A DNA stretch of 63,402 bases from Minisyncoccia bacterium (GTDB taxonomy: Bacteria > Patescibacteriota > Minisyncoccia > Phycocordibacterales > GWA1-40-21), in NCBI GenBank assembly GCA_049695975.1, contig JBAVTE010000024.1, forward strand, positions 1 through 63,402, read 5' to 3'. Of this stretch, positions 372-60,808 are shown piece after piece. A model generated the notes under the pieces. It did no database searches, was not told the origin of the DNA, and worked only from the letters and a program-made list of their open reading frames with translations. Numbering within the stretch: position 1 is the stretch's first letter; the number at the start of each line of letters is the position of its first letter. Position numbers and translations under genes: made by a program.

Positions 372-890
372 GTGACCAGGAAAAAAGAAATAAAGGTAAA
401 TAATAAAATGCAGACTGGTTATAAATATAATCTGACTGCTAGAGAAGGTAAGGATTTTGATCCACGCTTCAAGCCAGCCCTCACCCCAAAGCAAATGCTA
501 ACTCTGGGTGTATTTGGCGGGCGTTATTTGCGTGATTGCCTGTCTGAATATCCAGTGAGTTGGTTTGTTAAAGCAAAGTTTCATCCGGAAGGCTTGCCGG
601 GACATGATAAGAAATTGAATTATTTTGGTGTGGATGCTTCACAGCCACTTCTGGTCTGGCAGAAAAAAAGTTGGATAAATCCTCAAGATCCTCGCGGTTG
701 GTTTGAATGGTATTGCCGATATTTTCTTGGTCGTCGAACTGCTGATGATGACAGGCAGATAAAACGCTTCCTGGCTATGTGCCGTCATGTCAGCCAGCTT
801 AAAAAGAACTGCCGTCCTGGTGATATTTTTTGCCGTCCCCGCCAACGCCAAGCTCTCCTTCACTGGGCTTATGATAGCCGCAAGATTTGA
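372..890 (+). CDS. Conserved hypothetical protein with a W/R-rich core (DPRGWFEWYCRYFLGRR). Its 3' end is the repeat unit of the downstream cassette array.
   Basis: 172-aa ORF, visibly G+C-richer than its neighbours. The GTG start sits 6 nt after the extended -10. I cannot assign a named family from memory. An alternative ATG is at 408. Confidence 0.7.
   Translation: MTRKKEIKVNNKMQTGYKYNLTAREGKDFDPRFKPALTPKQMLTLGVFGGRYLRDCLSEYPVSWFVKAKFHPEGLPGHDKKLNYFGVDASQPLLVWQKKSWINPQDPRGWFEWYCRYFLGRRTADDDRQIKRFLAMCRHVSQLKKNCRPGDIFCRPRQRQALLHWAYDSRKI
820..890 (+). repeat. R1: intact reference copy of the cassette-boundary repeat (codons GDIFCRPRQRQALLHWAYDSRKI*)
   Basis: Direct alignment with 2099-2169, 2856-2925 and 4002-4064. 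Confidence 0.9.
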
Positions 891-977
891 TTTAAAAAGC
901 TAAAACGGCGTGAATTTGGTCAAAAAGTGACCCAAATTCACGCTATACCTAGCCGTCAACGTCGTATGTTGACGGGT

Positions 978-1002
978 GATTATTTTGTCTGAAAGAATGG
1001 TG
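978..1002 (+). repeat. M motif (GATTATTTTGTCTGAAAGAATGG), second half of the boundary repeat. Here it is separated from R1 by an 87-88-bp insert.
   Basis: The same motif directly abuts the stop codon in the copy at 4063-4087. It recurs at 4846-4872 and, truncated, at 5926-5952. Confidence 0.8.
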
Positions 1003-1017
1003 GCTGACCCCATTTTC

Positions 1018-1959
1018 CTAAATATTTTTTAGATACTCCTGTGCTTTTTCTAATACAACATCGCGATTCCCATTATTATCAGGTATTACAGCGATTGGTA
1101 TATCTGGTTCTATCCCAACACCTTCTAAAGACTGTCCATCATTTCTGTACATTCTCCATGTGGATACTCTCAAGGTAAATTCTTTGTCTCCCAAATGTAA
1201 ACTGAAAGCTTTTGGGTTACCAGATCCACCGCCAGTTGTTTGTCCAATTGTTATAGCTTTTCCAGTATCTTTTAACATCAAAATAAACATTTCATTCGAG
1301 CTTAGACATTTTGAGTCAGTTAGGATTACTACTTTTTTGTCCAAATATGTTTCGCCAGGTTCAATATTAAATGCTTCTTCGACTAATTCTGTTGAATCTG
1401 ATTTTTTACGTAAAACAGTACAAAATTGTATTTTTTTATCTATAAAGTGTCTAGCAAGACTTTCTGCCAAATTACTATTTCCTCCACCATTCTCTCTGAC
1501 ATCAATAATAATACTCTCACTTTCTGTGAGTTTGTTGAGTTCTTCCTCGACTAGCTCTGCTACATTTTTATCATCAACTTTAACATGATTACTCCAGCTC
1601 AATATTTTTAAATATCCAATATTGTTGGACAACATCATACTTTCTACTGGTTTTTGTTTTCTTTCTGGTCCTTTCTCACTATCAGATTTAATTTTTGGTA
1701 GATTTTCTTTTAAATCAGCGTGACTATTTTTTAGTGTAGAAATAATTTGTTGAATCTTTTTTACAAGTTCATTAGTATTAGGGGTGTTTTCATCATCTTC
1801 TAATAATGAATCAAATTTTCTTAAAAAAACTTCTCTTTCTTCATCTGATAAAAAAGGAAAAGTATCGCCTATATCATTTTTGATGGTGTTTATAAAATTA
1901 AGATTTTCTGCACTCTTAATATTTTCTTGTTTTACTGATTCTTGCTCAATTTTTTCCAT
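1018..1959 (-). CDS. S41-family (C-terminal processing / tail-specific protease-like) serine peptidase, with no obvious signal peptide
   Basis: IIDVRENGGGNS and TDSKCLSSNEMF...GQTTGGGSGNP motifs resemble the peptidase S41 core. The start is taken at the ATG at 1959, which lies 6 nt after TGTTATAAT on the minus strand. Confidence 0.65.
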   Translation of the reverse strand: MEKIEQESVKQENIKSAENLNFINTIKNDIGDTFPFLSDEEREVFLRKFDSLLEDDENTPNTNELVKKIQQIISTLKNSHADLKENLPKIKSDSEKGPERKQKPVESMMLSNNIGYLKILSWSNHVKVDDKNVAELVEEELNKLTESESIIIDVRENGGGNSNLAESLARHFIDKKIQFCTVLRKKSDSTELVEEAFNIEPGETYLDKKVVILTDSKCLSSNEMFILMLKDTGKAITIGQTTGGGSGNPKAFSLHLGDKEFTLRVSTWRMYRNDGQSLEGVGIEPDIPIAVIPDNNGNRDVVLEKAQEYLKNI

Positions 1960-1965
1960 ATAAAT

Positions 1966-1974
1966 ATTATAACA
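1966..1974 (-). promoter_or_regulatory. Extended -10 TGTTATAAT (minus strand), 6 nt upstream of the ATG at 1959
   Basis: The reverse complement of 1966-1974 reads TGTTATAAT, followed by ATTTAT and then ATG. Confidence 0.55.
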
Positions 1975-2098
1975 TGTCCAAAAGATAATATTAGTAAAAA
2001 TGGAAATGGGACTAATAGAGACAGGTCGTAGCAAAGTGACGACCCGTCTTTTCTTTTCAGCGGCAACTATTCTTTATGCAAGACCTAAAGAATTTTTA

Positions 2099-2169
2099 GT
2101 GATATTTTTTGCCGTCCACGAGAGCGCCAAGCTCTTCTCCACTGGGCTTATGATACTCGGAAGATTTGA
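2099..2169 (+). repeat. R2: second copy of the gene-tail repeat (reads DIFCRPRERQALLHWAYDTRKI* in the ancestral frame)
   Basis: Seven codons differ from R1. Five changes are synonymous and two are conservative (Q>E, S>T). Confidence 0.9.
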
Positions 2170-2194
2170 TTGTATTTTGTTTATATAGTTCGCA

Positions 2195-2203
2195 TGATAT
2201 AAT
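2195..2203 (+). promoter_or_regulatory. Extended -10 TGATATAAT, 6 nt upstream of the GTG at 2210
   Basis: Same nonamer and same spacing as at 357-365. Confidence 0.55.
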
Positions 2204-2209
2204 TTCGAC

Positions 2210-2698
2210 GTGAATAAAATAAATATCTATATTGATGGTAATAACTTATACCGATCAGCCAAAGAACTGGGTTTTGAAATTGATTATAAAAAGTTTAGGG
2301 GCTGGCTTCGTCAGAAATATAATCCGGCCATCGTTTACTTATTTATTGGTCTAGTACCAGAGAGGGTAAAATTTTACGAACATCTACAAAGTTGTGGTTA
2401 TATTTTGGTTTTTAAACAAACCGTGTCTGTTGGAGAAAAAGTAAAAGGTAACTGTGATGCCGAATTAGTATTAAAAGCTACTTCAGATTTTTATGAAAAA
2501 TCTTTTTCTTCTTGTGTTTTAATTACTGGTGATGGAGATTTTGGTTGCTTGGTAGAATTTTTAAAAGAAAAGAAATCTATGAGCCAGATTATTGCTCCAG
2601 ATAAAAAGAAATGTTCTTTTTTACTCAGAAATAAAAATACGGAGATTACTTTTTTGAACGAACATTATCATAAATTTTCAACCAAGATTAAGCCCTAA
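2210..2698 (+). CDS. NYN-domain (LabA/PIN-like) putative ribonuclease
   Basis: N-terminal INIYIDGNNLY and C-terminal ITGDGDFGCLV motifs are typical of NYN/LabA-like domains. Confidence 0.65.
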   Translation: MNKINIYIDGNNLYRSAKELGFEIDYKKFRGWLRQKYNPAIVYLFIGLVPERVKFYEHLQSCGYILVFKQTVSVGEKVKGNCDAELVLKATSDFYEKSFSSCVLITGDGDFGCLVEFLKEKKSMSQIIAPDKKKCSFLLRNKNTEITFLNEHYHKFSTKIKP

Positions 2699-2855
2699 AA
2701 GAAAAAGCCCCCAATGCAGACGAATCTGCATCAGGGTCTCCTTCATAGTGATGCAGAGATTATAACATAGTTTATTGAATTTATGCAATAGGTTCAAATC
2801 TATTGAAAATCAGACAAATTAACCTTTATAAAATAAGGTTAATTTGTCACCGCGC

Positions 2856-2925
2856 TGATATTTTCTGACGTCCACGAGAGCGTCAAGCTCTCCTTCACTG
2901 GGCTTATGATGCTCGGAAGATTTGA
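2856..2925 (+). repeat. R3: third copy of the gene-tail repeat (DIF*RPRERQALLHWAYDARKI*), with Cys TGC changed to TGA
   Basis: Alignment with R1 and R2. A 13-bp perfect hairpin at 2813-2847 lies just upstream. Confidence 0.9.
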
Positions 2926-2972
2926 TGATGGAGCATGGAGGGTGGCTTTTGTTTGGTGAAAAGGAAGTGGTG

Positions 2973-2981
2973 TGGTAAAGT
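2973..2981 (+). promoter_or_regulatory. Extended -10-like TGGTAAAGT, 6 nt upstream of the ATG at 2988
   Basis: Same geometry as the other cassette genes. Confidence 0.45.
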
Positions 2982-2987
2982 TTAAAT

Positions 2988-3971
2988 ATGGAAAATGAAG
3001 AATTATACCGAGCAACCAGTGAAGCCATTGATTCAGAACCACTGAAGGGTCTAGGCTTAAAATTGATTGGAATTGGAGCTGAAAAAATTGTATTTGAAAC
3101 TCCTGGCAGTAAAAGAAAGATTATAAAAGTTAGTATTGATGAAGTTATGTTTGCGTTAGCCAAAATATTAGGGCTTGTACCAAAAGATCAAGAGCGTTAC
3201 TACTCACTTTCATCCATAATCGCTGAACATAAAATTATTGAAGAGGACCTTAAAGAGGTTTTTGGAACAGAACATCTATTAAGAAATGGTGTTTTTAAAG
3301 CAAAAATACCGCTGCCTAAAAATGTTGTTATCGAACTATTTAAAAATAGTCGCATGGGTCAAATTGTCACTAACATGCTAGATAATAGGGAAGACGATGC
3401 CACTTTTGAAGTTGAGGTATTAGTTGAAACTCAAACCAAAGCAGAAGAATTAAGTGATCCGGAAAAATATAAAACAAGAGATTTTAGTACAGATCTGATT
3501 ATTAGCGATGAATTTCGTGGTGCTAAAGATATTCCCCAGGCGCTAGTTTTGGCTGAGCAGATGATAAACGAACGATTCCTTGATAATTTTGATGAAGACC
3601 TTAAGGATGTAAAATATATTGAAATTATTAGAGAAATTTTAACTAAAATTATTCAGTTTACAAAACGTACAGGACAAATGCTTGATATCTTTGGTCCAAA
3701 CAATATTACGATTTTTACAAAAGAAGACGGTTCTTTAGATTATCATTTACCAGATGTGATCCTCCCTGGGACACAAAGCCGTTGGTTTATAAATATAAAA
3801 GATGATCCGGAATATAATTTGCTAAGACATTATTATGTTTTCTATTACTCCATAAAAAGTTTGGGCGATAAACTTGGACTTGCAGATAATCTTGAACCGG
3901 ATGACCTTGTTTATTTTAAAGGTGCTGGCATTCCTACAAGTGGGCAGTTTCCAGATTCTACTGAGAGATAA
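2988..3971 (+). CDS. Atypical protein-kinase-like fold protein (orphan)
   Basis: GIGAEKIVFETPGSKRKIIKV looks like a Gly-rich loop followed by the VAIK lysine. LDIFGPNNITIF...LDYHLPDV looks like a D..N catalytic loop followed by a metal-binding Asp. Confidence 0.45.
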   Translation: MENEELYRATSEAIDSEPLKGLGLKLIGIGAEKIVFETPGSKRKIIKVSIDEVMFALAKILGLVPKDQERYYSLSSIIAEHKIIEEDLKEVFGTEHLLRNGVFKAKIPLPKNVVIELFKNSRMGQIVTNMLDNREDDATFEVEVLVETQTKAEELSDPEKYKTRDFSTDLIISDEFRGAKDIPQALVLAEQMINERFLDNFDEDLKDVKYIEIIREILTKIIQFTKRTGQMLDIFGPNNITIFTKEDGSLDYHLPDVILPGTQSRWFINIKDDPEYNLLRHYYVFYYSIKSLGDKLGLADNLEPDDLVYFKGAGIPTSGQFPDSTER

Positions 3972-4001
3972 GAATATATCAAATCAATCAAGGTCTCACC
4001 T

Positions 4002-4087
4002 TGATACTTTTTCCGTGAGCGCCAAGCTCTTCTCCACTGGGCTTATGATAGCCGTAAGATTTGATTATTTTGTCTGAAAGAATGGGG
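4002..4087 (+). repeat. R4+M: fourth copy (FFRERQALLHWAYDSRKI*), lacking the CRP codons, directly followed by the M motif
   Basis: Alignment with R1-R3. The stop TGA at 4062-4064 overlaps the start of GATTATTTTGTCTGAAAGAATGGGG. Confidence 0.9.
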
Positions 4088-4126: not shown

Positions 4127-4819
4127 ATGGGTATAAAGAAAAAAATTATGAACATTATATTAATAATTATCGGGGTTGTATTGGTTGGATGGTTTCTCTA
4201 TAGCTGGCTTTCGGTCCTTAATATTGAAGAGCCAAAGTATAAAATTGTAAGTGAGGCAAGTGGCTATGAGATACGAGAATATACATCTTACATTGTCGCT
4301 GAAACTACTGTTAGCAGTGCAGAGAACAGAGACGATGCGGTGAGAATAGGCTTTCCTATAATCGCCGGCTATATCTTTGGCGACAATACAAAAAAAGACA
4401 AGATTGCCATGACTGCACCGGTTAATACCGAAGAGAGTACTTCAGAGAAGATCGCCATGACGGCGCCAGTGAATACAGAGAAAATAGCGATGACCGTGCC
4501 GGTAAATACCCAGGAAGAAGCAGGTAGTGGCGCATACAAGATTTCCTTTGTTATGCCAAGTAAATACACACTTGAGACTTTGCCCGAGCCAAATGATAAG
4601 CGGGTAGTATTGCGAGAAGTGCCGGCGCGCAAGCTCGCGGTGCGAAGGTTTAGTTGGACGAATAGTGAATCTGCTTTTAAAAAACACGAGGCAGAACTTT
4701 TGGAAGCACTTAGGCGTGATGATGTTCTGACCGTTGGTGTTGTGAATGTGGCGCGCTACAACACGCCGTGGACAATACCGTTTATGCTTCGCAATGAAGT
4801 GCAGATAGAGGTAAAGTAG
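4127..4819 (+). CDS. SOUL/HEBP-family heme-binding-like protein with an N-terminal TM anchor
   Basis: EEPKYKIV..YEIREY, and the IAMTAPV motif present three times (KIAMTAPVNTE x3). The 3' half is visibly G+C-rich. Confidence 0.7.
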   Translation: MGIKKKIMNIILIIIGVVLVGWFLYSWLSVLNIEEPKYKIVSEASGYEIREYTSYIVAETTVSSAENRDDAVRIGFPIIAGYIFGDNTKKDKIAMTAPVNTEESTSEKIAMTAPVNTEKIAMTVPVNTQEEAGSGAYKISFVMPSKYTLETLPEPNDKRVVLREVPARKLAVRRFSWTNSESAFKKHEAELLEALRRDDVLTVGVVNVARYNTPWTIPFMLRNEVQIEVK

Positions 4820-4827
4820 TTAATAAT

Positions 4828-4872
4828 TTGATACCTGGGAGATTTGATTGTTTTTGTCTGAAAGAATGGGGG
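4828..4872 (+). repeat. R5: internally deleted boundary repeat (TTGATACC..GGGAGATTTGATTGTTTTTGTCTGAAAGAATGGGGG)
   Basis: It keeps the TTGATAC left end seen in R4, the GATTTGA stop region and the M motif. Confidence 0.75.
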
Positions 4873-4917
4873 AGGAATCAATTTTTTTATAGCTTTTCCT
4901 GTATTTAGAAGAATATA

Positions 4918-5838
4918 TTATTTATTGTCATGGTGTGCATTCAAATTTTCTATATGTTGAGAAGGAGAAATATTTAATGTCTGACACATGTATGATAATT
5001 TTCCTATAATTAGGTGAAGTTTTTCTTCAGATATTTTATTTTGATTAAACTTTTGTATACTTTTAATTAATTCTCTAGGGTGAATAATATTTTCTATAAT
5101 AGGTGTTTTAAGTTCACAAGAATCCATAAAGACGACAATACTTTCAAAACTATCTTTATTTACGAAAGGTATTAAATCTTGCAAAGCAATAATATGCGAA
5201 TAATTTTGTCTAATCGGGTTTTGAAATTGAAATTTTTTCTCTCCACCTGGTAATGACTGGGTCCAGTTTTCTTTATCTTTACTACCAAAAATCCATCCCT
5301 TATAATCCTTACTCTCGATAACAAAAATACCAAATTTTGATACCACCAAGTGGTCTATCTGTGACGAACCATTAAGAGTTGAAGGAATTGTGAGATTGTT
5401 AAATATAAAATAATCTTTATAACTCAACCCCTCCGAAAGAATATGCGCTACTTCTTGTTCACCAGCAGTAAGTCCTTCCATATAACATTTACATCCGTGT
5501 TTTTCACTATTTATTTCAGCAATCTGTTCCTTAGTAATGTTTGGATTGTTAAGTCCTACGGCCGTCGAATTATTAGATTTTTTGTATCTTCTAAAGGTAA
5601 AAACAATAATTACAATAGCTATTGCTAATATAAATAATAACCCCGGATTTATCTTTGATGAAATGAGTAAAATAATATAATAGCTACCTAAAAGTATAAA
5701 AAACCATTTCCAAAAATTAAAAGAATTATTATAAGAACCGTAAGATTTATGATGGTAGTAATAATTTGGTTTACTGTAATTACGAAAATAGTAAGGTGAA
5801 TAATAACGACGTCTTCGGTAATTATGATAATAACTCAT
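4918..5838 (-). CDS. NERD-domain (nuclease-related) protein with a Tyr/Arg/Asn-rich N-terminus and two TM helices
   Basis: QIDHLVVSKFGIFVIESKDYKGWIFG matches the NERD core. The N-terminal 45 aa are about one third Tyr. Confidence 0.65.
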   Translation of the reverse strand: MSYYHNYRRRRYYSPYYFRNYSKPNYYYHHKSYGSYNNSFNFWKWFFILLGSYYIILLISSKINPGLLFILAIAIVIIVFTFRRYKKSNNSTAVGLNNPNITKEQIAEINSEKHGCKCYMEGLTAGEQEVAHILSEGLSYKDYFIFNNLTIPSTLNGSSQIDHLVVSKFGIFVIESKDYKGWIFGSKDKENWTQSLPGGEKKFQFQNPIRQNYSHIIALQDLIPFVNKDSFESIVVFMDSCELKTPIIENIIHPRELIKSIQKFNQNKISEEKLHLIIGKLSYMCQTLNISPSQHIENLNAHHDNK

Positions 5839-5844
5839 CTTGAA

Positions 5845-5853
5845 ATCTTACCA
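5845..5853 (-). promoter_or_regulatory. Extended -10 TGGTAAGAT (minus strand), 6 nt upstream of the ATG at 5838
   Basis: The reverse complement of 5845-5853 reads TGGTAAGAT, followed by TTCAAG and then ATG. Confidence 0.5.
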
Positions 5854-5925
5854 TACTTTTTGACTGATAACAATTTTAAAGATTCGGTTGCATCTTTAAA
5901 ATTAATTATAGATAAAATATGTCCC

Positions 5926-5952
5926 TGATACCTTTTTCTAAAGAATGGGGCA
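5926..5952 (+). repeat. R6: most degraded boundary repeat (TGATACCTTTTTCTAAAGAATGGGG)
   Basis: It retains the TGATAC left end and the AAAGAATGGGG right end of R4 and R5. Confidence 0.6.
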
Positions 5953-6002
5953 GGAGGCTGTTTTTTCTCTACGCAAGTGGGCTATAAATATGGAGTATTT
6001 TG

Positions 6003-19770: not shown

Positions 19771-19905
19771 GCAATGTGCCGGCCGGACTGAGCGAAGCGA
19801 AGGAGGTGGGGACTGCGACTTTGCCTTGAGTTCACGAAAGGCAAAAGTCGTGGTTCACAAATTTTTAAAAGCACCTTGAATGGTGCTTTTAAAATTGGTG
19901 CCGGC
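19768..19905 (+). repeat. G+C-rich hairpin-module element E2, 3' of tRNA-Arg
   Basis: It starts with TTTGCAATGTGCC, the reverse complement of the tRNA end plus trailer. It contains GAGCGAAGCGAAGG, the hairpin CGACTTTGCC..GGCAAAAGTCG, and GTGCCGGC direct repeats at 19775 and 19898. It also holds a bidirectional terminator at 19867-19890. Confidence 0.55.
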
Positions 19906-19927: not shown

Positions 19928-20269
19928 CTAAACTCTACCATAATCATCTTCTAATCTGACAATATCTTTTTCATCAAAGGTACCAAAAGAAATTTCAAGG
20001 ACTTGGGCATCACCATCTTTGTGTTTGAGTCTATGTTTTATACCGATTGGAATTTCTACTTCATCGCCGACTTTCATTTCAACAGTTTCTTCACCAACAA
20101 CCGCCCAGACTTGCCCGGACAAAACTTTCCAGAATTCCTGTCTACTTTTGTGATATTGTAAACTACACTCTGCACCTGGCTTAACTCGGAGGATTTTTAC
20201 TGTCGACATTTCATTTAAAGTAAATTGTTCTTCTTCTCCCCATGGTTCTTTTATAAAAATTTTTTTCAT
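19928..20269 (-). CDS. Cupin-domain protein resembling the type II phosphomannose isomerase C-terminal domain
   Basis: SLQYHKSRQEFW..., GIKHRL and C-terminal EKDIVRLEDDYGRV motifs. Confidence 0.65.
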   Translation of the reverse strand: MKKIFIKEPWGEEEQFTLNEMSTVKILRVKPGAECSLQYHKSRQEFWKVLSGQVWAVVGEETVEMKVGDEVEIPIGIKHRLKHKDGDAQVLEISFGTFDEKDIVRLEDDYGRV

Positions 20270-21015
20270 TTGTCTTCATCGATTATTTTTCTAATAAAAT
20301 TTTTGGTTTCTTCTACGTTTTTCACTGCAATAGTTTCTATTCCAGTTGTCTTCACTGAAGCATCGTTGCCACCGGGGAAAAAAGCATCACCGATAAATAA
20401 AATTTCTTCTTTTTTATAACCAAGTCTAGTACAAATTTGGTTTATGGCAAAAGCCTTGTCTATATGTTTGGAGGTAATATCAATGGAAGTAGAGCCTCCA
20501 ATCGCAACATCAAATTCTGGTAAAAGTTTCTGTAATTTATTTTGTAAAATTTTCCTTTTTGTATAATCAGGATCCCATTTCTCTTTTTCGATTTGAGGGG
20601 CTTCTTGTCCCAATGCTGAAAAAGTAAATTCTGCTTCACGATCCTCCAATCTTTTTCCGAAGTGTTCTTTTGGGAGCAAATTTTCTTCATGAGAAACTGT
20701 GTCTACGGCAGTAACAATCTTAGTTTTATCTATTTCAGAAAATGATTCTGAATAGATCTTGTGCCAAATTCCCATCTCAAATTTGTACATAGAACCTCCT
20801 TTAGTTGGGAAAATAATCAAATTTTCTAGGAGATTTTTTGGACAAGAAAAGCGGTTAATTACTTGCTTCTCAAATTGTGTAAAACCTCCACCGGAGACAA
20901 TAGCCACAGCCTTTTTTTGAAGCAGATTACTTAAAAGTGTGGACATCTCTTTGTCTAATGGGCTTTTACTTTGGGCCAAAGTACCATCTAGGTCAAAAAC
21001 TATAATTTTTTTCAT
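20266..21015 (-). CDS. HAD-IIB hydrolase, eukaryotic-type phosphomannomutase-like
   Basis: IIVFDLDGTLAQSKSPLD, then VAIVSGGGFTQFEKQ and a C-terminal GDAFFPGGND motif. The start was moved to MKKIIVF. Confidence 0.6.
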   Translation of the reverse strand: MKKIIVFDLDGTLAQSKSPLDKEMSTLLSNLLQKKAVAIVSGGGFTQFEKQVINRFSCPKNLLENLIIFPTKGGSMYKFEMGIWHKIYSESFSEIDKTKIVTAVDTVSHEENLLPKEHFGKRLEDREAEFTFSALGQEAPQIEKEKWDPDYTKRKILQNKLQKLLPEFDVAIGGSTSIDITSKHIDKAFAINQICTRLGYKKEEILFIGDAFFPGGNDASVKTTGIETIAVKNVEETKNFIRKIIDEDK

Positions 21016-21152
21016 TGTGTGTATTATATCTAAACTACGACATTCAAGCAATTAAAGAAATATGTTGTATTTTTAACACGATAGTGTGGTATAATGTTTT
21101 GAAAGGTGTGTTTATACAAAAACCATCACCTCAAGTTTTTGTAATAAAAAAA

Positions 21153-22976
21153 ATGAAAGAAAAAGTTTTGAAACAAAAAAAAGTTAAAGATAATTTAGAA
21201 TCTTTAGTTTTTTTTAATTTTCAGAAAAAAGTTTTTATTTTATTGCGACAAAAATTAGATAAAACTCAATTTGTTTTGTTATCAAACAAAAAAGATTCGA
21301 TTAAAGATTTTAATAAACGTGTTAGAAAAGTTAGTTTTGATACAAAAGATTTTACGGTTGATTTCTTCAAAATTCAAAATTTTCATATAACTGAATTTGA
21401 TCGAGAATTAGTTTTATCATTTACCGACGAGAGCAAAACCTTTCTGGCTTTTTCTAAAAATGGAATCAAATGGACAGTGAAAGGAGTTTTACCACAAATT
21501 ATTGAAGAAGGCTGTCTGTCGCCATGTAAAGTAAATGGCGATAATTTTGCTTTTTTCTATGGTAATAAGGATATCAAAGTTGCATATTCTTCAGATTTAA
21601 AAAATTGGAAGATAGATGGGTCTTCTATTTTAAAAACGAGAGATAGTTTTTTTGATAAAAATGATTTACGAGTGGTAAGTGTCCATTTGTTTGGAAAAGG
21701 CGTTGGCTTAGTCTATGAATCATCTAGTCAAAAAGGGAACCAATATTTGGAAACTGGTTATGCACTTTTGGCTAGAGATAATTTTTCAAAAATAATTTGG
21801 CGTACCGACTCCCCGCTGACTGACGGTTGTCTACCTACTCTTGGTGTGGCTGATACTCGATGTCTAGGTATGATTTTAAAGGCGGGAATATTTTATTTAT
21901 ATTATAAATCTGGCATGAAGTTATTTGTAATTTCTGGAAGAGATCCTTTTTCTGTACCAGTTGAAACTACTAAAAGAATGACCAAACATCCCAAGAATCC
22001 TATTATTTGGCCTAAAGCTATTCAAAAATGGCAAGCGATGGGCACCTTCAATCCTGGAGCTGTGTACCTAGATGGAAAAGTTCATCTGGTCTATCGTGCT
22101 GTAAGTGATGTTGGTTTGTCCACAGTTGGTTATGCATTACTCAAAGATTGTTTGCATATCGAATGTCAATCAGATGAGCCGATTTACATTGTTGGACAAG
22201 AATCCAATTTTAAAGAAAGCACACAACAACCATTTATGTATGAATCTGGCCCTGGCTTTGGTGGTTGTGAGGACCCACGGCTGGTTCAAATAGGGGAGAC
22301 TATTTATATGATCTATCTCAATTTTAATGGTTGGGAAAATCCTCGAATTGCTATGACTTCTATCTCCGCTCAAGATTTTTTAAATAAAAAATGGGCTTGG
22401 CGAAAACCGATTTTTTTGTCTAGAGAGGGTCAGATGCATAAAAACTGGGTGTTATTTCCAGAAAAAATTAATGGTAAATTTGCCTTACTCAGTAGCTTAA
22501 GTCCCAAGGTTCAAGTTATTTATTTTGATAAAATGCCAAAAAAGAATATAAGATTGGAGAGTCAATTTAAAAATAAATCAGATGTGAGACGTTGGGATAA
22601 TGTAATGAGAGGAACTGGTGCCCCACCCATTAGAACAGAACATGGATGGCTCGTCCTGTATCATGCAATGGATGTACGTGACCCCAATAAATACAAAGTA
22701 GGCGCTATGATATTGGATTATGCAAATCCAGAGAAAATTTTGTACCGTTCTGCCAATCCTATTCTGGAACCAGATCAAAAATATGAAAATGAAGGTTTCA
22801 AGTCTGGAGTAGTGTATGTCTGCGGAGCTGTGGTTGTGGAAGATACTTTATTTGTTTATTATGGTGGTGCTGACACCGTAGTCTGTGTCGCAACGATACC
22901 ATTTCAAGCATTTTTAAAAAGTTTGATGACAGATACCCAAGAGGAGATCGGCCTTCAAGAAATTTTTTTGAATTAA
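21153..22976 (+). CDS. GH130-family glycoside phosphorylase/hydrolase with an unknown ~270-aa N-terminal region
   Basis: GGCEDPR motif, and NPGAV...YRAV and GAPPIRTEHGWLVLYH blocks typical of GH130 (DUF377). An extended -10 TGGTATAAT lies at 21087-21095. Confidence 0.65.
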   Translation: MKEKVLKQKKVKDNLESLVFFNFQKKVFILLRQKLDKTQFVLLSNKKDSIKDFNKRVRKVSFDTKDFTVDFFKIQNFHITEFDRELVLSFTDESKTFLAFSKNGIKWTVKGVLPQIIEEGCLSPCKVNGDNFAFFYGNKDIKVAYSSDLKNWKIDGSSILKTRDSFFDKNDLRVVSVHLFGKGVGLVYESSSQKGNQYLETGYALLARDNFSKIIWRTDSPLTDGCLPTLGVADTRCLGMILKAGIFYLYYKSGMKLFVISGRDPFSVPVETTKRMTKHPKNPIIWPKAIQKWQAMGTFNPGAVYLDGKVHLVYRAVSDVGLSTVGYALLKDCLHIECQSDEPIYIVGQESNFKESTQQPFMYESGPGFGGCEDPRLVQIGETIYMIYLNFNGWENPRIAMTSISAQDFLNKKWAWRKPIFLSREGQMHKNWVLFPEKINGKFALLSSLSPKVQVIYFDKMPKKNIRLESQFKNKSDVRRWDNVMRGTGAPPIRTEHGWLVLYHAMDVRDPNKYKVGAMILDYANPEKILYRSANPILEPDQKYENEGFKSGVVYVCGAVVVEDTLFVYYGGADTVVCVATIPFQAFLKSLMTDTQEEIGLQEIFLN

Positions 22977-22979
22977 AAT

Positions 22980-24902
22980 ATGTTTTCAGTAAAAAAATCC
23001 ATAAATAATCCTTTATTAGAGCCAGATACGAATGAACCATGGCAAGCAGAGGCTGTTTTCAATTGGTGTCCAGTTCAAGATAAAAAAGTCACCCGTTTTG
23101 TCTATAGGGCGATGTCAGCTCGAGAATTTTCCTACAATGTCAATTTATCTGTATCTACTATTGGTTATGCTGAAACAAAAGATTACATCAATTTCACCGA
23201 TCGTCGGCAGATAATCTTTCCAGAATATGAATGGGAAAAGTTTGGTTGTGAAGATCCTCGTATGGTCAAAATAGGTAAAAAATATTATATTTTTTATACA
23301 GCATTATCAAACCATCCTTTCGATGCAAACAGTATCAAGGTTGCCCTAGCTATTACAGAAGATTTTCAACATTTTGAAAAACATTTGATTACACCTTTCA
23401 ATGCCAAGGCAATGACTCTGTTTCCAGAAAAAATTAATGGAAAGTTTACAGCGATTCTCTCAGTGGATACCGACAATCCGCCTGCAAAAATATCCATGAT
23501 TCAGTTTGATAAAGAAGAAGATATGTGGAATAGCCAAATTTGGAAGAAATGGTATTCAGAAATTGAGAAATATCGGATAGATCCACGCAGATTTGATACT
23601 GATCAAGTAGAAATAGGTGCTCCACCAATAAAAACAAAGAAAGGTTGGCTTTTGATATATAGTCATATCCAAAATTATTTTAAAAAACATAAGGAAGGTT
23701 TTTATTCTGAAGATGTCAGTTTTGGCGTAGAGGCCATGTTGCTTGATAAGAATAATCCTACAAAAATTCTAGGAAAGAGTAAGGGGGCAATCTTTAGTGA
23801 CGGTGAATCTTATGAAAAATTTGGAAAAGTTCCTAATATTGTTTTTCCTTCCGGTGCTCTTATCAAGAAAAAAGATTTGGAAATTTTTTATGGCGGGGCA
23901 GATACAGTATGCTGTCAGGCAAAAGTGAATTTGGAAAATCTTTTGGCTAGTTTATTGCCAGGTGCGATGGATAAATTTGTAAAACGATACGATGGTAATC
24001 CTATACTTTTGCTCAAACCAGAAAATGCGTGGGAAAATTATGCTGTTTTCAATCCGGGTGCTTTTCAAGATGGAAAAATAATAAATATTGTTTATCGTTC
24101 AATGTCGACCGACGGCACATCTTTCTTTGGCTTGGCCACAAGTCGAAATGGTCTGAAAATTAATTCTCGTTTAGATCATCCAATCTATTCTCCACGAGCA
24201 GATTTTGAAAGCAAAAAGCAACCAGGGAACTCGGGTTGTGAAGATCCACGATTGACACTTTTGGATGGACAAATATATATGTGCTACACCGCTTATGATG
24301 GAGTGGATTTGCCTAGAGTGGCTTTGTCTCATATTTCTCTTTTAGATTTTAGAAATCAAAACTGGAATTGGTCTGAACCCGTGCTCATTTCTCCGAATAA
24401 TGTTGACGATAAAGACGCTTGTATTTTTCCAGAAAAAATTGATGGAAAATTTTTATTGATTCACCGAATCAATGGCGATATCTGTGCCGATTTTTTGCAT
24501 TCGCCAAAATCTATAGAGGAAGCCACATTGTTGGGAACGCCAATTATTTTGCCGAGGCCCGGGATGTGGGACAATGAAAAAGTGGGTCTAGCTGCACCAC
24601 CTATAAAAACCAAAAAAGGGTGGCTTCTTCTCTATCATGGTATTTCCAAAAGCCATCATACTTACAGAGTTGGTGCTGTTCTACTTGATTTAAAAAATCC
24701 TACTTTAGTCATTGGTCGTACCAGCCAACCAATTTTTGAACCGCGAGAAAAATATGAATTGGAAGGACAAGTACCAAAAGTTGTTTTTCCTTGTGGTTTA
24801 GCTTTCATAAAAGACAAACTTTTTATCTATTACGGCGGTGCTGATAGTGTCGTTGGTGTAGCTACTGCTTCTATCAAAAAACTTTTGAGTATGTTTGATT
24901 AG
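22980..24902 (+). CDS. Tandem double GH130 domain protein
   Basis: Two copies of the module: GCEDPRM...GAPPIKTKKGWLLIY and GCEDPRL...AAPPIKTKKGWLLLYH. Confidence 0.7.
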   Translation: MFSVKKSINNPLLEPDTNEPWQAEAVFNWCPVQDKKVTRFVYRAMSAREFSYNVNLSVSTIGYAETKDYINFTDRRQIIFPEYEWEKFGCEDPRMVKIGKKYYIFYTALSNHPFDANSIKVALAITEDFQHFEKHLITPFNAKAMTLFPEKINGKFTAILSVDTDNPPAKISMIQFDKEEDMWNSQIWKKWYSEIEKYRIDPRRFDTDQVEIGAPPIKTKKGWLLIYSHIQNYFKKHKEGFYSEDVSFGVEAMLLDKNNPTKILGKSKGAIFSDGESYEKFGKVPNIVFPSGALIKKKDLEIFYGGADTVCCQAKVNLENLLASLLPGAMDKFVKRYDGNPILLLKPENAWENYAVFNPGAFQDGKIINIVYRSMSTDGTSFFGLATSRNGLKINSRLDHPIYSPRADFESKKQPGNSGCEDPRLTLLDGQIYMCYTAYDGVDLPRVALSHISLLDFRNQNWNWSEPVLISPNNVDDKDACIFPEKIDGKFLLIHRINGDICADFLHSPKSIEEATLLGTPIILPRPGMWDNEKVGLAAPPIKTKKGWLLLYHGISKSHHTYRVGAVLLDLKNPTLVIGRTSQPIFEPREKYELEGQVPKVVFPCGLAFIKDKLFIYYGGADSVVGVATASIKKLLSMFD

Positions 24903-25027: not shown

Positions 25028-25111
25028 CATGACAAAAACTAGTTAAATATTAATACTTAGAATATTTAATTTTTTGTCTGGTGACCGAGTCTTCTATCGC
25101 CCACATATTTA

Positions 25112-26414: not shown

Positions 26415-26498
26415 GCACGGGTGGCGAAACTGGTAGACGCACTACCTTGAGGTGGTAGCGCCCGCAAGGGCATGGAAGTTCAAGTCTTCTCCCGTGCA
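26415..26498 (+). tRNA. tRNA-Leu (anticodon GAG), long variable arm, CCA not encoded
   Basis: Acceptor GCACGGG/CCCGTGC, anticodon loop TTGAGGT, variable arm CGCCCGCAAGGGCAT. A promoter TTGATT-17-CATAAT lies at 26377-26405. Confidence 0.85.
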
Positions 26499-26541
26499 CA
26501 GACATTAAAAAAGGCGCATCAAGCGCCTTTTTTAATGTCTG
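26499..26541 (+). terminator. Long perfect hairpin terminator CAGACATTAAAAAAGGCGC-ATCAA-GCGCCTTTTTTAATGTCTG
   Basis: 19-bp stem immediately after the tRNA discriminator base. Confidence 0.7.
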
Positions 26542-26661
26542 CTGGAGAAGACTTGAAAGACGGAAATCATTTTTCTAGCAAGAAAAATGATTGAGTCGAG
26601 GTCGACAGTATCTGTGAGCGACGGCGAACAGAAAACTGGTAATCAAGTCCTCTCTCGTGCA
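26542..26661 (+). repeat. G+C-rich hairpin-module element E3, ending in a degenerate direct copy of the tRNA-Leu 3' end
   Basis: Modules are at 26544-26557 (inverted T-arm copy), 26565-26592 (loop CTAGCAAG), 26611-26632 (loop GAGCGACGGCGA) and 26638-26661 (pseudo 3' end). Confidence 0.7.
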
Positions 26662-33455: not shown

Positions 33456-33489
33456 GATCACGACGCTTCTATAGCGTCGTGATTTTTTT
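33456..33489 (+). terminator. Intrinsic terminator GATCACGACGC-TTCTATA-GCGTCGTGATTTTTTT
   Basis: 11-bp stem followed by a T-tract. Confidence 0.7.
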
Positions 33490-33561
33490 ATTCCGGCTAG
33501 CGAGCAACAGAATAGAAAATTCTGATTTTACATTTTGCCCGAGTGAAGACTGAACACAAGG
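33483..33561 (+). repeat. 79-nt repeat E4 (CTAGCGAG ... CCGAGTGAAGACTGAACACAAG), paralogous to 41528-41606
   Basis: Hand alignment gives roughly 80 percent identity over 79 nt with E6. Confidence 0.7.
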
Positions 33562-41458: not shown

Positions 41459-41527
41459 ATAGGAATTTTAATTTGCTTTTCTGATTCTTTTAATGTATCT
41501 TATTAATACCAAATAGTCTTGGTTTTA

Positions 41528-41606
41528 TTTTTTTATTTCGACTAGCGAGGAGCAAAAAGTAAAATTATTATTTTACTTTTTGTCCGAGCGAAGGCGAAAC
41601 ACAAGA
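41528..41606 (+). repeat. 79-nt repeat E6 (CTAGCGAG - 16-bp hairpin - CCGAGCGAAGGCGAAACACAAG), paralogous to 33483-33561
   Basis: Alignment with E4. The stem GGAGCAAAAAGTAAAAT/ATTTTACTTTTTGTCC carries one bulge. Confidence 0.7.
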
Positions 41607-58923: not shown

Positions 58924-59817
58924 CTATTGTAGATAACCTCTGTTATATCTCTTAAGAATTTTTAGTAAGTTCTCATTAATTTCCTCTCCTCCCAATTTAC
59001 TATTTTGTATTTCATTCATTAATTCGGAAATTTTTGCTTGTTTTTCTGCTTTTTCTGAATTTTCATTTTTAACAATTCTGACAATTTTTATAAATTCTGG
59101 AAATGTTAGGTCTTTATTATTTTTTGTTTTTTCAAGAGCGAGTATTAAATTTTCTATATTTAAATAAGTTAATCTCTTTGAATCACTATTTATTTGTAAT
59201 TTATTTTGGTTATTAAAAATAGTTAGAATTCTTATTAATATAGCAAGTCTATCAAATTTTATACTAAATATATTAGGTATAGATTCTATATACCCAATGA
59301 CTAATTTTTGAGTGTTTTCATTTAAATTATCGCTAAATAAATTAATACAATTTTTTATGTATTCAATTTTTCTCCCCATTGATTCTTCCGCATAGCCTAA
59401 AATTCGTGGCATTTTTTGAATCAATTCAATAGGATTCTCAAAACCTTGTCCTTTTAACCACTCTATTTTTTTACCCATAGATTCTTCCGCAAGGCCTAAA
59501 ATTGGTGGCATTTTTTGAATCAATTCAATAGGATTCTCAAAACCTTGTTCTTTCAACCATTCAATTTTTCTCCCCATTGATTCTTCCGCATAGCCTAAAA
59601 TTCGTGGCATTTTTTGAATCAATTCAATAGGATTCTCAAATCCAATTTTTTTTAATCCTTCTATTTTATTTAAAATAGAAGATTCATCTTTTGTAATACT
59701 TTCAGGAGAAAAACCTAATTTTTCTAATATAGAATATATTTCATCGGAATAACGCAAATCATCTACTGGCTTATCTGGATTAAATTTATCATTCATAAAT
59801 ATAATATTATCATACAA
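58924..59817 (-). CDS. mTERF-like helical repeat protein
   Basis: Three near-identical 33-aa units, GFENPIELIQKMPRILGYAEESMGRKIEWLKEQ, match the mTERF repeat logic (Gf....i.k.....P.iLgys.E..l..k.e.L). Confidence 0.55.
   Translation of the reverse strand: MYDNIIFMNDKFNPDKPVDDLRYSDEIYSILEKLGFSPESITKDESSILNKIEGLKKIGFENPIELIQKMPRILGYAEESMGRKIEWLKEQGFENPIELIQKMPPILGLAEESMGKKIEWLKGQGFENPIELIQKMPRILGYAEESMGRKIEYIKNCINLFSDNLNENTQKLVIGYIESIPNIFSIKFDRLAILIRILTIFNNQNKLQINSDSKRLTYLNIENLILALEKTKNNKDLTFPEFIKIVRIVKNENSEKAEKQAKISELMNEIQNSKLGGEEINENLLKILKRYNRGYLQ
59363..59641. repeat. Tandem 99-bp repeat (about 2.8 units) inside the mTERF-like gene
   Basis: GATTCTTCCGC recurs at 59381, 59480 and 59579. Units 1 and 3 are identical over about 80 nt. 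Confidence 0.9.
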
Positions 59818-59873: not shown

Positions 59874-60033
59874 GTGGAGATGGCGAGAGTATCTCCCTCG
59901 ACTAAAGTTTCGCCGTCGCTCAACTTTGTCTGGGCACCAGCTCGTCTGTTTTTCTTGCTAGAAAAACATGACTCCGCTGTTCGATTCTCGCATGCAAGCA
60001 AAGCAGTTTGCTTGCTCATCTCCACAAAATTAA
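59874..60033 (-). repeat. G+C-rich hairpin-module element E7, 3' of tmRNA and homologous to E3
   Basis: It holds a 15-nt direct copy of the tmRNA 3' end (59874-59888 = 60061-60075). It also holds inverted copies of the T-arm (59979-59991) and of the acceptor plus trailer (60017-60033). The two hairpins have loops CTAGCAAG (59947-59968) and GAGCGACGGCGA (59904-59927). Confidence 0.7.
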
Positions 60034-60053
60034 AATCGCCCATTCAGGCGACT
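60034..60053 (-). terminator. tmRNA terminator hairpin (GTCGCC-TGAAT-GGGCGAT) nested in a stem of about 23 bp that includes the tmRNA 3' end
   Basis: The minus strand reads CATCTCCACAAAATTAAGTCGCCTGAATGGGCGATTTTAATTTTGTGGAGATG. Confidence 0.6.
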
Positions 60054-60061
60054 TAATTTTG

Positions 60062-60458
60062 TGGAGATGGCGAGAATCGAACTCGCGTGCAAAAGATAGT
60101 TTTCAGTGGGTCTACAAAGTATAGAATATTTTTTTCGCCACGAGGACGAATTTAAATAAAAAAGTTCGAAATAAACAAAATGCTTTTTTATCGATCTCTT
60201 AATCTCGGAAGTAGGGCAGAGAAGACCTACTTTCTTGTCTGATTATATTACACCGCTTTTCCGCTATCAGATATTACGGAAGGCGACGTCGCTTAGGCTA
60301 AAGCGTAAGCGAATTGAAAGTCCTTCACTCCGAAGAATGGAGAAACGATCTTTGAAATGCGATTTGCATTTATGATCCCTGTTAGTTTTAGGAGATAAAC
60401 AGAGTTGCTCCACTTTGCGCAAAGAAGTACCGGTCTTTTGTCTAGGCCGATCATCCCC
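60062..60458 (-). ncRNA. ssrA: tmRNA (ssrA), one-piece, predicted tag ANRISKIVSPFFGVKDFQFAYALA*
   Basis: 5' GGGGATG pairs with 3' CATCTCC including G3:U70, discriminator A, and a T-arm GCGAGAATCGAACTCGC on the plus strand. The tag ORF is at 60293-60367 and ends ...YALA-TAA. The gene is adjacent to smpB. Confidence 0.85.
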
Positions 60459-60535: not shown

Positions 60536-60808
60536 TTATAAAATATGGCCTATTTTATTTATATATTTATTCAAGATTCTCTTTTTCTCCCTTGCTCCCC
60601 ATAGACTTTTTAAAAACCTTTCTCGATTAAAAGCGTTTGCTTTATCTACAATTTCTTCCGTATGAATCATAAATAAGGGTCGTCTGTTCCTTGTAGCTAA
60701 TACTTTCCCATAGTTATGGTCTTTCAGCCTTTGGTTTGGGTCTTCTGTACAACCCACATATAAGCGATCATCTTTTTTGCTTAATAAAATATAAACAAAA
60801 TATGACAT
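60536..60808 (-). CDS. Stand-alone GIY-YIG nuclease-domain protein
   Basis: YVYILLSKKDDRLYVGCTEDPNQRLKDHN motif. Confidence 0.75.
   Translation of the reverse strand: MSYFVYILLSKKDDRLYVGCTEDPNQRLKDHNYGKVLATRNRRPLFMIHTEEIVDKANAFNRERFLKSLWGAREKKRILNKYINKIGHIL

Follow-up and report, generated by a model that had tools for sequence, protein, structure and literature searches.

The stretch of DNA studied here (the window) comprises 63,402 nt of contig JBAVTE010000024.1 from a Minisyncoccia bacterium (Patescibacteriota; assembly GCA_049695975.1). It carries two copies of a small non-coding unit, one behind the tRNA-Leu(GAG) gene and the other behind the transfer-messenger RNA (tmRNA) gene ssrA. 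In both places the 3'-terminal segment of the live gene (X) recurs downstream, once inverted (X') and once direct (X copy). A palindromic terminator lies between the gene and X', and a core that folds into a three-way junction with two hairpin arms lies between X' and the X copy (Table 1). These parts had been described in an initial annotation made from the sequence alone, all coordinates and sequences of which were found to be correct on re-checking.

Behind tRNA-Leu, X' spans tRNA positions 54 to ~67, that is, the T loop, the T-stem 3' strand and 2 nt of the acceptor. Beyond the two hairpins recognized initially, the unit contains helices P2a and P3 and a closing helix, P1, in which X' pairs with the X copy. 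When the Leu element is folded as RNA (z = -4.65 against shuffled sequences), the predicted closing helix and the two arms form. The sequence of the arm 2 loop, GAGCGACGGCGA, is found five times in the window at up to two mismatches, against 0.49 matches expected by chance.

Table 1. Parts of the two full copies in the window and of two further family members
Feature	Position	Strand	Support and remarks
tRNA-Leu(GAG), live target gene, CCA not encoded	26415–26499	+	ARAGORN; Rfam tRNA 48.8 bits
X, T-loop-to-3'-end segment of the live tRNA-Leu	26479–26498	+	Recurs downstream inverted and direct
Perfect 19-bp palindromic hairpin, bidirectional-terminator type, part of the inserted unit	26499–26541	+	Missing at empty sites L078, L080
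X' (Leu), GGAGAAGACTTGAA, exact reverse complement of 26479–26492	26544–26557	+	12/12 complementary
Core three-way junction (Leu)	26558–26637	+	Covariance model R1 76.9 bits, E = 1.4e-14; minimum-free-energy fold; covariation
P2a (Leu)	26559–26561 with 26595–26597	+	
Arm 1 (hairpin 1, Leu), loop CTAGCAAG	26565–26592	+	
P3 and arm 2 (hairpin 2, Leu), loop GAGCGACGGCGA	26611–26632	+	
X copy (Leu), decaying direct copy of the tRNA 3' end	26638–26661	+	17/19 positions match the real 3' end
tmRNA (ssrA), live target gene	60061–60458	-	ARAGORN; Rfam tmRNA 101.6 bits
Terminator hairpin of the tmRNA-linked copy	60026–60060	-	
X'a, GTGGAGATG, exact complement of the acceptor 3' strand	60017–60025	-	A opposite U70
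P1a hairpin, loop ACTGCT	59994–60016	-	Splits X' at the T-stem/acceptor boundary
X'b, CGAGAATCGAAC, exact complement of T loop and T-stem 3' strand	59979–59990	-	
Core three-way junction (tmRNA-linked)	59900–59978	-	R1 86.2 bits, E = 1.5e-16 over 59889–59988
X copy, pseudo tmRNA 3' end	59874–59899	-	22/27 identical
Variant member after tRNA-Arg	19772–19860	+	R1 23.8 bits, E = 0.002
Core-less remnant after tRNA-Val: hairpin, ctggtgacc (P3 3'-strand remnant), direct tRNA 3'-end copy	25029–25104	+	

The copy behind the tmRNA gene, read on the minus strand from 60060 down to 59874, has the same order of parts, with the addition of the hairpin P1a, which splits the inverted copy in two. An 18-mer (TTTTTCTAGCAAGAAAAA) and a 14-mer (TGAGCGACGGCGAA) are identical in both copies, and the stems that carry them differ by compensatory changes: in the tmRNA-linked copy arm 1 reads TGTTTTT-CTAGCAAG-AAAAACA and arm 2 AAAGTT-GAGCGACGGCGA-AACTTT. 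The initial observation of the same loops on covarying stems is thus borne out. The tmRNA-linked element also folds well as RNA (z = -8.81 against shuffled sequences), again with the closing helix and two arms. A different origin of X', as a direct copy of the 5' acceptor strand within a degenerate second tRNA, was excluded at the G3·U70 pair of the tmRNA, where X'a has A and the 5' strand G. The A opposite U70 identifies X'a as an inverted copy of X and not as a copy of the tmRNA 5' strand.

Genomes were scanned, one per species, with the pattern CTAGCRAG-N15-45-GAGCGAMGGCGAA, which returned 75 loci (these, and the further loci fetched from relatives, are numbered with an L below). About 50 of them belong to Patescibacteria (labelled Paceibacterota, Nomurabacteria, Kaiserbacteria, Adlerbacteria, Lloydbacteria, 'Parcubacteria' or 'Saccharibacteria') or to unclassified genomes of similar low G+C content. 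The other ~25 loci, G+C-rich, with odd motif spacings and no hairpins, were set aside as chance matches; their number fits a rough pre-scan estimate of ~30. Among the Patescibacteria loci there are two architectures: type A, in which the motifs are 31–33 nt apart and each lies in a hairpin loop, and type B, a different fold considered below. Covariance model R1 gave 57 matches in 54 loci, so that the model building and scan proposed in the initial annotation did yield further copies with both loop motifs. The family is known from ~35 Patescibacteria genomes as a multi-copy, highly structured, non-coding unit of ~100–190 nt, and all confirmed copies come from Patescibacteria or from unclassified metagenome-assembled genomes that are similarly low in G+C.

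The fold was examined in an alignment (A2) of 42 type-A cores, in which P2a (columns 11–14 with 49–52), arm 1, and P3 with arm 2 were tested. Standard pairs occupy 88.9% of the cells, compared with 39–48% when the partners are slid by 1–3 columns, and both partners have changed in 24 of the 31 pairs. Covariation scores 0.509, whereas the slid controls score 0.05–0.11 and none of 500 shuffles attains the observed value. G-U is the commonest pair at columns 59:93 (29/42) and 61:91 (22/42), both in P3, and A-C cells are rare, which indicates that the folding strand is the one of tRNA-sense polarity, as RNA or as single-stranded DNA. In addition, the L025 and L065 orthologues, from two species, are distinguished by compensatory changes. 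The conserved words, described initially as loops, are partly paired: in CTAGCAAG, C-G and U-A pairs close an AGCA tetraloop, and GAGCGACGGCGA can form tandem G·A pairs around a GC/GC mini-helix. These inner pairs are beyond the reach of covariation because their positions are invariant. Regarding P1, the mean duplex energy of X' with its own X copy is -10.9 kcal/mol, and -6.8 kcal/mol with the partners of other elements. A conserved secondary structure with compensatory changes on one strand, as in structured RNAs, is therefore present, and the core structure is under purifying selection. The selected RNA or single-stranded-DNA structure suggested initially from two copies gains support and strand specificity from the 42 sequences.

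The position of the units relative to genes is equally regular. Forty-eight of the 57 R1 matches lie within 500 nt downstream of a tRNA or tmRNA gene on the same strand, and their targets comprise 17 tRNA types and tmRNA; conversely, of the 88 tRNA-type genes present in these loci, 43 have an R1 match. The remaining nine matches are cut by locus ends (four) or follow topA (three), efp (one) and a decayed tRNA-Gln end (one). The copies behind topA (L002, L016, L042, L207) and efp (L041) contain direct and inverted copies of the last codons, and across the family more than 20 different gene ends serve as targets. The proposal that the unit targets tRNA and tmRNA 3' ends thus holds for most matches, but these are not its exclusive targets.

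Members share the order palindromic terminator, X' (sometimes split by P1a), three-way-junction core with two arms, and X. The direct copy mostly begins at T-loop position ~56/57, ends at the gene end or up to 14 nt beyond it, and is often perfect (21/21, 23/23, 24/24, 28/28), while the inverted copy reaches T54. In some members the duplicated and inverted segment is confined to the last few bases of the gene plus trailer, and the direct repeats range overall from ~5 to 28 nt. As in tRNA-borne genomic islands, the insert is flanked by a direct repeat of the tRNA 3' segment. The two copies of the target do not age alike: over eight positions (57–64) in 23 elements, X' has 7 mismatches in 184 positions when set against a perfect complement of the live X, and the X copy has 26 in 184 when set against the live X itself (Fisher p = 0.0008). 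The direct copy thus decays, whereas the inverted copy is kept up.

Relatives, obtained through the neighboring L19 and SmpB proteins, include both occupied and empty sites. The tRNA-Leu site, occupied in the window, is empty in L078 and L080; in L078, CCATTTGATTTTTCTTGAAATGGGG directly follows tRNA-Leu, and its homologue in the window, AATTTGAATTTTTTTTGAATTGGGG, comes after the X copy. The flank of the empty site resumes after the X copy, and the inserted unit therefore consists of terminator, X', core and X. At the tmRNA site, L206 is occupied, whereas L205, with the same SmpB protein, and L201 are empty; catagtgaact follows the tmRNA gene in L205 and the X copy in L206. A 75-nt insert (hairpin, P3 remnant and X copy) at tRNA-Val in the window is missing from L076. 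The unit is a discrete insertion, present or absent between close relatives, and the duplicated gene ends, read initially as an insertion scar, are matched by empty orthologous sites at tRNA-Leu, tRNA-Val and tmRNA in which the gene is directly followed by the flank that comes after the pseudo 3' end at the occupied site.

Occupied sites also differ in their occupant. L076, whose tRNA-Leu is identical to that of the window, has another variant at that site, with GCGCGACGGGCGC as arm 1 and the arm 2 loop CAGCAG; at tRNA-Arg, L076 has a full T-loop-type copy (65.3 bits) and the window a variant of the 3'-end type. In L077, which has the same L19 protein as L076, the terminator loop is flipped (agttaa versus ttaact in L076). 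Tandem arrays occur, with three units after tRNA-Pro (L061/L209) and two after tRNA-Leu (L046). An identical 34-nt arm is found at tRNA-Glu, tRNA-Pro, tRNA-Ser and topA sites of different genomes, in which X' and P3 differ, and hairpin 2 of the L061b unit is chimeric, with one variant passing into another inside the conserved loop. The modules thus pass from site to site and from genome to genome.

Several other features were seen at these sites. Runs of N in L061 (7362–7484 and 6661–6802) fall at the tips of long palindromes after tRNA-Pro and tRNA-Gly; that they hide or mask a feature was rejected, as L209, the same locus from a metagenome, has an ordinary terminator tip of ~17–25 nt, and their placement on hairpin tips indicates that the palindromes break short-read assemblies. 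In L077, the tRNA-Leu terminator is followed, as far as the contig end, by a non-coding stretch of more than 550 nt (4640–5193) with many inverted repeats; it was considered as an autonomous version of the element and discarded, having no coding potential, Rfam match or similarity to the other fetched loci. Upstream of tRNA-Leu in L078, a LAGLIDADG-like open reading frame (ORF; 1900–2730, weak Pfam match) is inserted and has left behind a displaced tRNA 5' fragment reaching as far as the anticodon loop; this is another type of insertion that duplicates a gene end, at the same tRNA. In L202–L205, a large serine recombinase gene (519–539 aa; ~4325–5985) overlaps the tmRNA 3' end and marks an island integrated just after ...catagtgaact; these genomes do not have the small element.

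Database searches gave the unit no known identity. Only tRNA and tmRNA reached the gathering thresholds of Rfam 15 in the window and in both element regions, and nothing beyond tRNA, tmRNA and one small-subunit rRNA was found in 13 related loci. The best sub-threshold match over the element was TD-2, on the opposite strand (32.7 bits against a threshold of 48.7), the others being noise of the hairpin type. A literature search returned no relevant paper on such an element. The initial impression that it matches no described class is thus upheld by Rfam and by the literature search. In viral contigs the two-motif pattern had no match; the 14-mer alone had at least 120, of which the best 25 by flanking complementarity all look like chance matches in unrelated sequence and have no hairpin-2 stem. 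There is no ORF inside the elements, and no recombinase was found among the 25 window ORF translations examined. The neighborhood was surveyed through the 25 commonest Pfam families, each matching at least two of the 145 ORFs that lie 2.5 kb or less from 39 elements; these families include no integrase, transposase or reverse transcriptase, nor any family of the tnpA, tnpB or iscB type, and Rfam gave no match of the IS605-orfB type. A consensus scan detected no sigma-70-like promoter inside either window copy, and the conserved motifs themselves were dismissed as promoter elements, being wrongly spaced and lying where that scan was blank. Since, in addition, the terminator lies between the gene and the core in most copies, a highly expressed RNA is argued against.

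We propose that the unit is mobile but non-autonomous and that it is active as a folded single strand with tRNA-sense polarity, a proposal that is drawn from the architecture of the copies and to which we give about an even chance of being right; the strand would most likely be single-stranded DNA. An inverted copy of the target has an evident use only in a single-stranded molecule, in which it turns the target sequence into a duplex. In a free or circular form consisting of X, terminator, X' and core, X would pair with X', the terminator would cap one tip of the helix and the two-arm core the other, and a duplex of target-end sequence would be rebuilt. If this helix then underwent strand exchange of the Campbell type with the gene end in the chromosome, the result would be the integrated order gene-X, terminator, X', core, X and flank, with the crossover in the T loop at ~56/57 for most copies and near the extreme 3' end for some. 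The gene would be kept intact, supplied with a terminator, and followed by a regenerated target for tandem insertion. The core with its invariant loops would act as the cis-acting site for an enzyme supplied in trans. Such a mechanism explains why only one strand folds, why G-T wobble pairs are tolerated, why a terminator lies upstream of the core, why units stand in tandem arrays, why X and X' are kept complementary and why no protein is encoded.

Several points weigh against this proposal. Neither an excised or circular form nor an enzyme has been seen. P1 is weak in some members (L008, L016, L043), and G-U-rich helices and tandem G·A motifs are more typical of RNA than of single-stranded DNA. 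The target-mimicking helix must be re-made on both arms for each of more than 20 targets, by a route that the proposal leaves unexplained. The spread among strains at orthologous sites could be due to ordinary homologous recombination after natural transformation, polymorphism alone being no proof of transposition; ComEC is encoded in the window. Finally, the loci were picked through two exact motifs, which biases the family-wide frequencies. The stronger statement, that the units form a new protein-less class of mobile element, confined to Patescibacteria, in which a trans-acting enzyme reads the core and recombines the helix with the matching duplex, so that the helix sets the target and a nucleic-acid duplex would program a natural recombination system, is tentative, and we regard it as plausible but doubtful.

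The same covariation, with its sense-strand G-U pairs, could instead reflect a structured RNA that serves the host. The unit would then be a trailer of tRNA operons, transcribed by read-through and acting, for instance, in protein binding or processing or as a tRNA-like minihelix. Its helix P1 would look like the coaxial acceptor/T-stem stack, with P1a placed where the D and anticodon arms branch, and the trailer would have been spread by recombination and kept for its benefit. The location of P1a at the T-stem/acceptor boundary suits such an RNA, as do the compensatory differences between the L025 and L065 orthologues and the high share of sampled tRNA and tmRNA genes that carry the element (43/88). 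The X copy in a read-through transcript is able to pair with the 5' acceptor strand of the tRNA, and tandem G·A pairs are, in our own reading, typical of protein-binding RNA. However, read-through would have to pass a strong terminator before the core in most copies, and the window copies hold no promoter-like site from which the core could otherwise be transcribed. The element is dispensable, with sites empty in close relatives; arms and loops are freely swapped between variants, units stand in arrays of three, and the acceptor part of the X copy often decays. A purely RNA role gives no reason for P1 to bear the sequence of the adjacent gene. We consider the host RNA the main rival, though an unlikely explanation.

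A generic extragenic palindrome, of the kind of repetitive extragenic palindromic (REP) sequences and bacterial interspersed mosaic elements (BIME), BOX or Correia, would act as terminator or insulator and would spread and be homogenized by gene conversion and template switching at palindromes, not by dedicated targeting. The multi-copy, intergenic, modular and terminator-bearing nature of the unit fits this description, and so do the loops flipped between L076 (ttaact) and L077 (agttaa), the chimeric stem of L061b, which reflects recombination inside a conserved loop, and the occurrence of the related type B motif away from tRNA genes. A palindrome of this kind is nevertheless improbable here, because ~90% of the non-truncated matches lie 3' of tRNA or tmRNA genes in a single orientation and each unit repeats the end of its own target in both orientations, with a boundary that falls reproducibly in the T loop; we know of no REP, BOX or Correia element that carries such repeats.

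Movement through an RNA intermediate, by reverse transcription of a read-through or element RNA and target-primed insertion, with X' produced by snap-back copying of the gene end and the X copy as target-site duplication, seems very improbable. It would explain the RNA-like structure, the variable length of the direct repeats (~5–28 nt), as in target-site duplications, and the polarity of X', which is as expected for a cDNA copied from the tRNA 3' end as far as the T loop; reverse-transcriptase genes do occur in these genomes (RVT_1 beside rplS in L078). However, none of the commonest Pfam families encoded near the elements is a reverse transcriptase, the elements show neither poly-A nor any other 3' priming signature, and snap-back copying does not explain the long, unique, element-borne terminator palindromes between X and X'.

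Least credible of all is the fallback of the initial annotation, that the units are decayed attachment (att)-site or arm remnants of larger tRNA-integrating islands or prophages that lost integrase and cargo: it has the geometry of tyrosine-integrase islands (a direct repeat from T loop to gene end) and the use of these very sites by islands in relatives (the serine recombinase gene that abuts tmRNA in L202–L205) in its favor, but it is rejected by the purifying selection on the core and the compensatory orthologues, by a structure kept through compensatory change in ~35 genomes and at more than 20 targets, by the uniform size and architecture, by an inverted copy that is maintained and not decaying, by the failure to find copies in viral contigs or a full-length element with the core flanking integrase and cargo, and by the absence of integrases from the commonest families of the 145 ORFs near 39 elements.

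Among known systems, integrative mobile elements exploiting Xer (IMEX) of the CTX-phi type come close to the proposed single-stranded element. Their attP, when folded as a single strand, forms a hairpin from two inverted dif-like sites and is recombined with chromosomal dif. The integrated order (target copy, loop, inverted target copy, body, regenerated target copy), the tandem arrays, the strand-specific folding and the lack of an encoded recombinase are shared. In contrast, the IMEX target is dif with XerCD, whereas the present unit targets many tRNA and tmRNA 3' ends as well as those of topA and efp; its body is a 100-nt non-coding junction and not a filamentous-phage genome, and no copy was found in viral contigs. 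P4-type islands and prophages with tyrosine integrases use a T-loop 'sublocation' of tRNA and tmRNA genes. The tRNA-integrating islands have in common with the unit the direct repeat from T loop to 3' end, the intact gene, the decaying displaced copy and the arrays at one gene, but the unit, at 100–190 nt, has neither integrase nor cargo, always contains an inverted target copy, and places one covarying single-strand core at more than 20 targets. Integron attC sites are recombined as folded single strands whose structure, and not sequence, is conserved. Like them, the unit is an imperfect palindrome that folds on one strand with compensatory change, and attC tips are sometimes branched too; it differs in having no integron integrase, attI or cassette ORFs, a closing helix that is a copy of the gene end instead of R''/R' boxes, and loops that are invariant in sequence.

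Miniature inverted-repeat transposable elements (MITEs), together with REP/BIME, pneumococcal BOX and Neisseria Correia elements, resemble the unit in being small, non-coding, multi-copy, modular, intergenic, non-autonomous and often terminator-like. Unlike MITEs and REP elements, it has terminal inverted repeats that differ from copy to copy and equal the local target, long and variable direct repeats without a fixed short target-site duplication, and a strict single-orientation association with gene 3' ends. The 3' repeats of E. coli tyrT, which give RtT RNA (RF00391), are units after tRNA-Tyr that each hold the last ~19 nt of the tRNA, and thus also place a pseudo tRNA 3' end within a structured repeat downstream of a live tRNA. 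The present unit does not match that family at the gathering threshold or among the listed matches at E up to 10, and it differs in structure, in its inverted copy, in host phylum and in serving many tRNA types. Its long direct repeats distinguish it from palindrome-associated transposable elements (PATE) derived from IS200/IS605 and from the omega-RNA of TnpB or IscB. The bridge and seek RNAs of IS110 and IS1111 adjoin a DEDD recombinase gene and have guide segments, in internal loops, for different halves of target and donor; they differ in that no recombinase was seen near the element, whose sense and antisense segments cover the same stretch and pair mutually, and retron msr-msd in that the genes downstream of the element are housekeeping genes and not a reverse transcriptase. 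Analogies with K-turns, box C/D and H/ACA RNAs, group I and II introns, retrons and T-boxes each failed for want of a defining feature. The unit is regarded as an undescribed kind because every known family considered fails at least one testable defining feature. We regard it as real, widespread and undescribed as far as could be found; its anatomy and insertional nature are observed, and its mechanism is proposed, with about an even chance of being right.

Two other members of the family lie in the window. The variant after tRNA-Arg keeps the scaffold of P2a, junction and P3, has different arm loops (GAGCGAAGCGA in arm 1), and its direct and inverted copies comprise no more than the final ~4 nt of the tRNA and a few nt of trailer. 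By loop, variants of the family include CAGCAG/GCGACGGGC and GAGCGAAGCGA. Between this element and tRNA-Val, beside which the core-less remnant lies, is an islet of 5 kb (19928–24902) that encodes a cupin or mannose-6-P-isomerase-like protein, a HAD/PMM-like protein and two GH130 phosphorylases; in L076, without this block, tRNA-Arg and tRNA-Val are ~250 nt apart.

Type B is a different fold built on the two conserved words of type A, and occurs in the window at 33482–33560 and 41527–41605, the latter upstream of fusA. It consists of TTTATTTCGnCTAGCGAGGAGC, a hairpin and GTCCGAGCGACGGCGAA, with GCGAGG:CCGAGC paired across tandem G·A pairs and TTTCGnC:GnCGAAA. It is also found in L003, L004, L012, L014, L015, L024, L040, L052, L059, L060 and L073, usually after a terminator and before a gene (fusA in the window), and matches no Rfam family at or above the gathering threshold.

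Regarding the genes around the tmRNA-linked copy, an ORF of 297 aa with an mTERF domain (Pfam E = 1.3e-14; 58924–59817, minus strand) lies directly 3' of the element and contains three 99-bp tandem repeats at 59361–59679. Organellar mTERF proteins bind tRNA-gene DNA or RNA; to our knowledge, mTERF proteins are rare in bacteria. A 90-aa ORF with a GIY-YIG nuclease domain (60536–60808, minus strand) lies between smpB and the tmRNA gene. Elsewhere in the window, a 71-nt repeat (D2 family in the repeat scan) occurs four times at 821–4065, with 75–100% identity and a spacing of ~0.8–1.3 kb, apparently within or beside paralogous ORFs.

For a specialist, the surprise is a protein-less, covarying insertion unit of 100–190 nt that copies its target in both orientations. 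The proposal can be tested directly with existing metagenomes, and covariance model R1 is ready for annotating these elements. If the proposed mechanism is true, it would be a new way for DNA to move, in an element far smaller than any autonomous one, with the target gene protected by a replacement end and a terminator and the specificity residing in a helix and not in a protein, and the enzyme could give a new programmable recombinase. If the unit is an RNA instead, it would be a widespread, unnoticed class of structured RNA linked to the tRNA operons of a vast bacterial radiation that is poorly understood. Either way, the family explains the pseudo tRNA 3' ends, the assembly-breaking palindromes and the strain variation found beside the tRNA genes of Patescibacteria.

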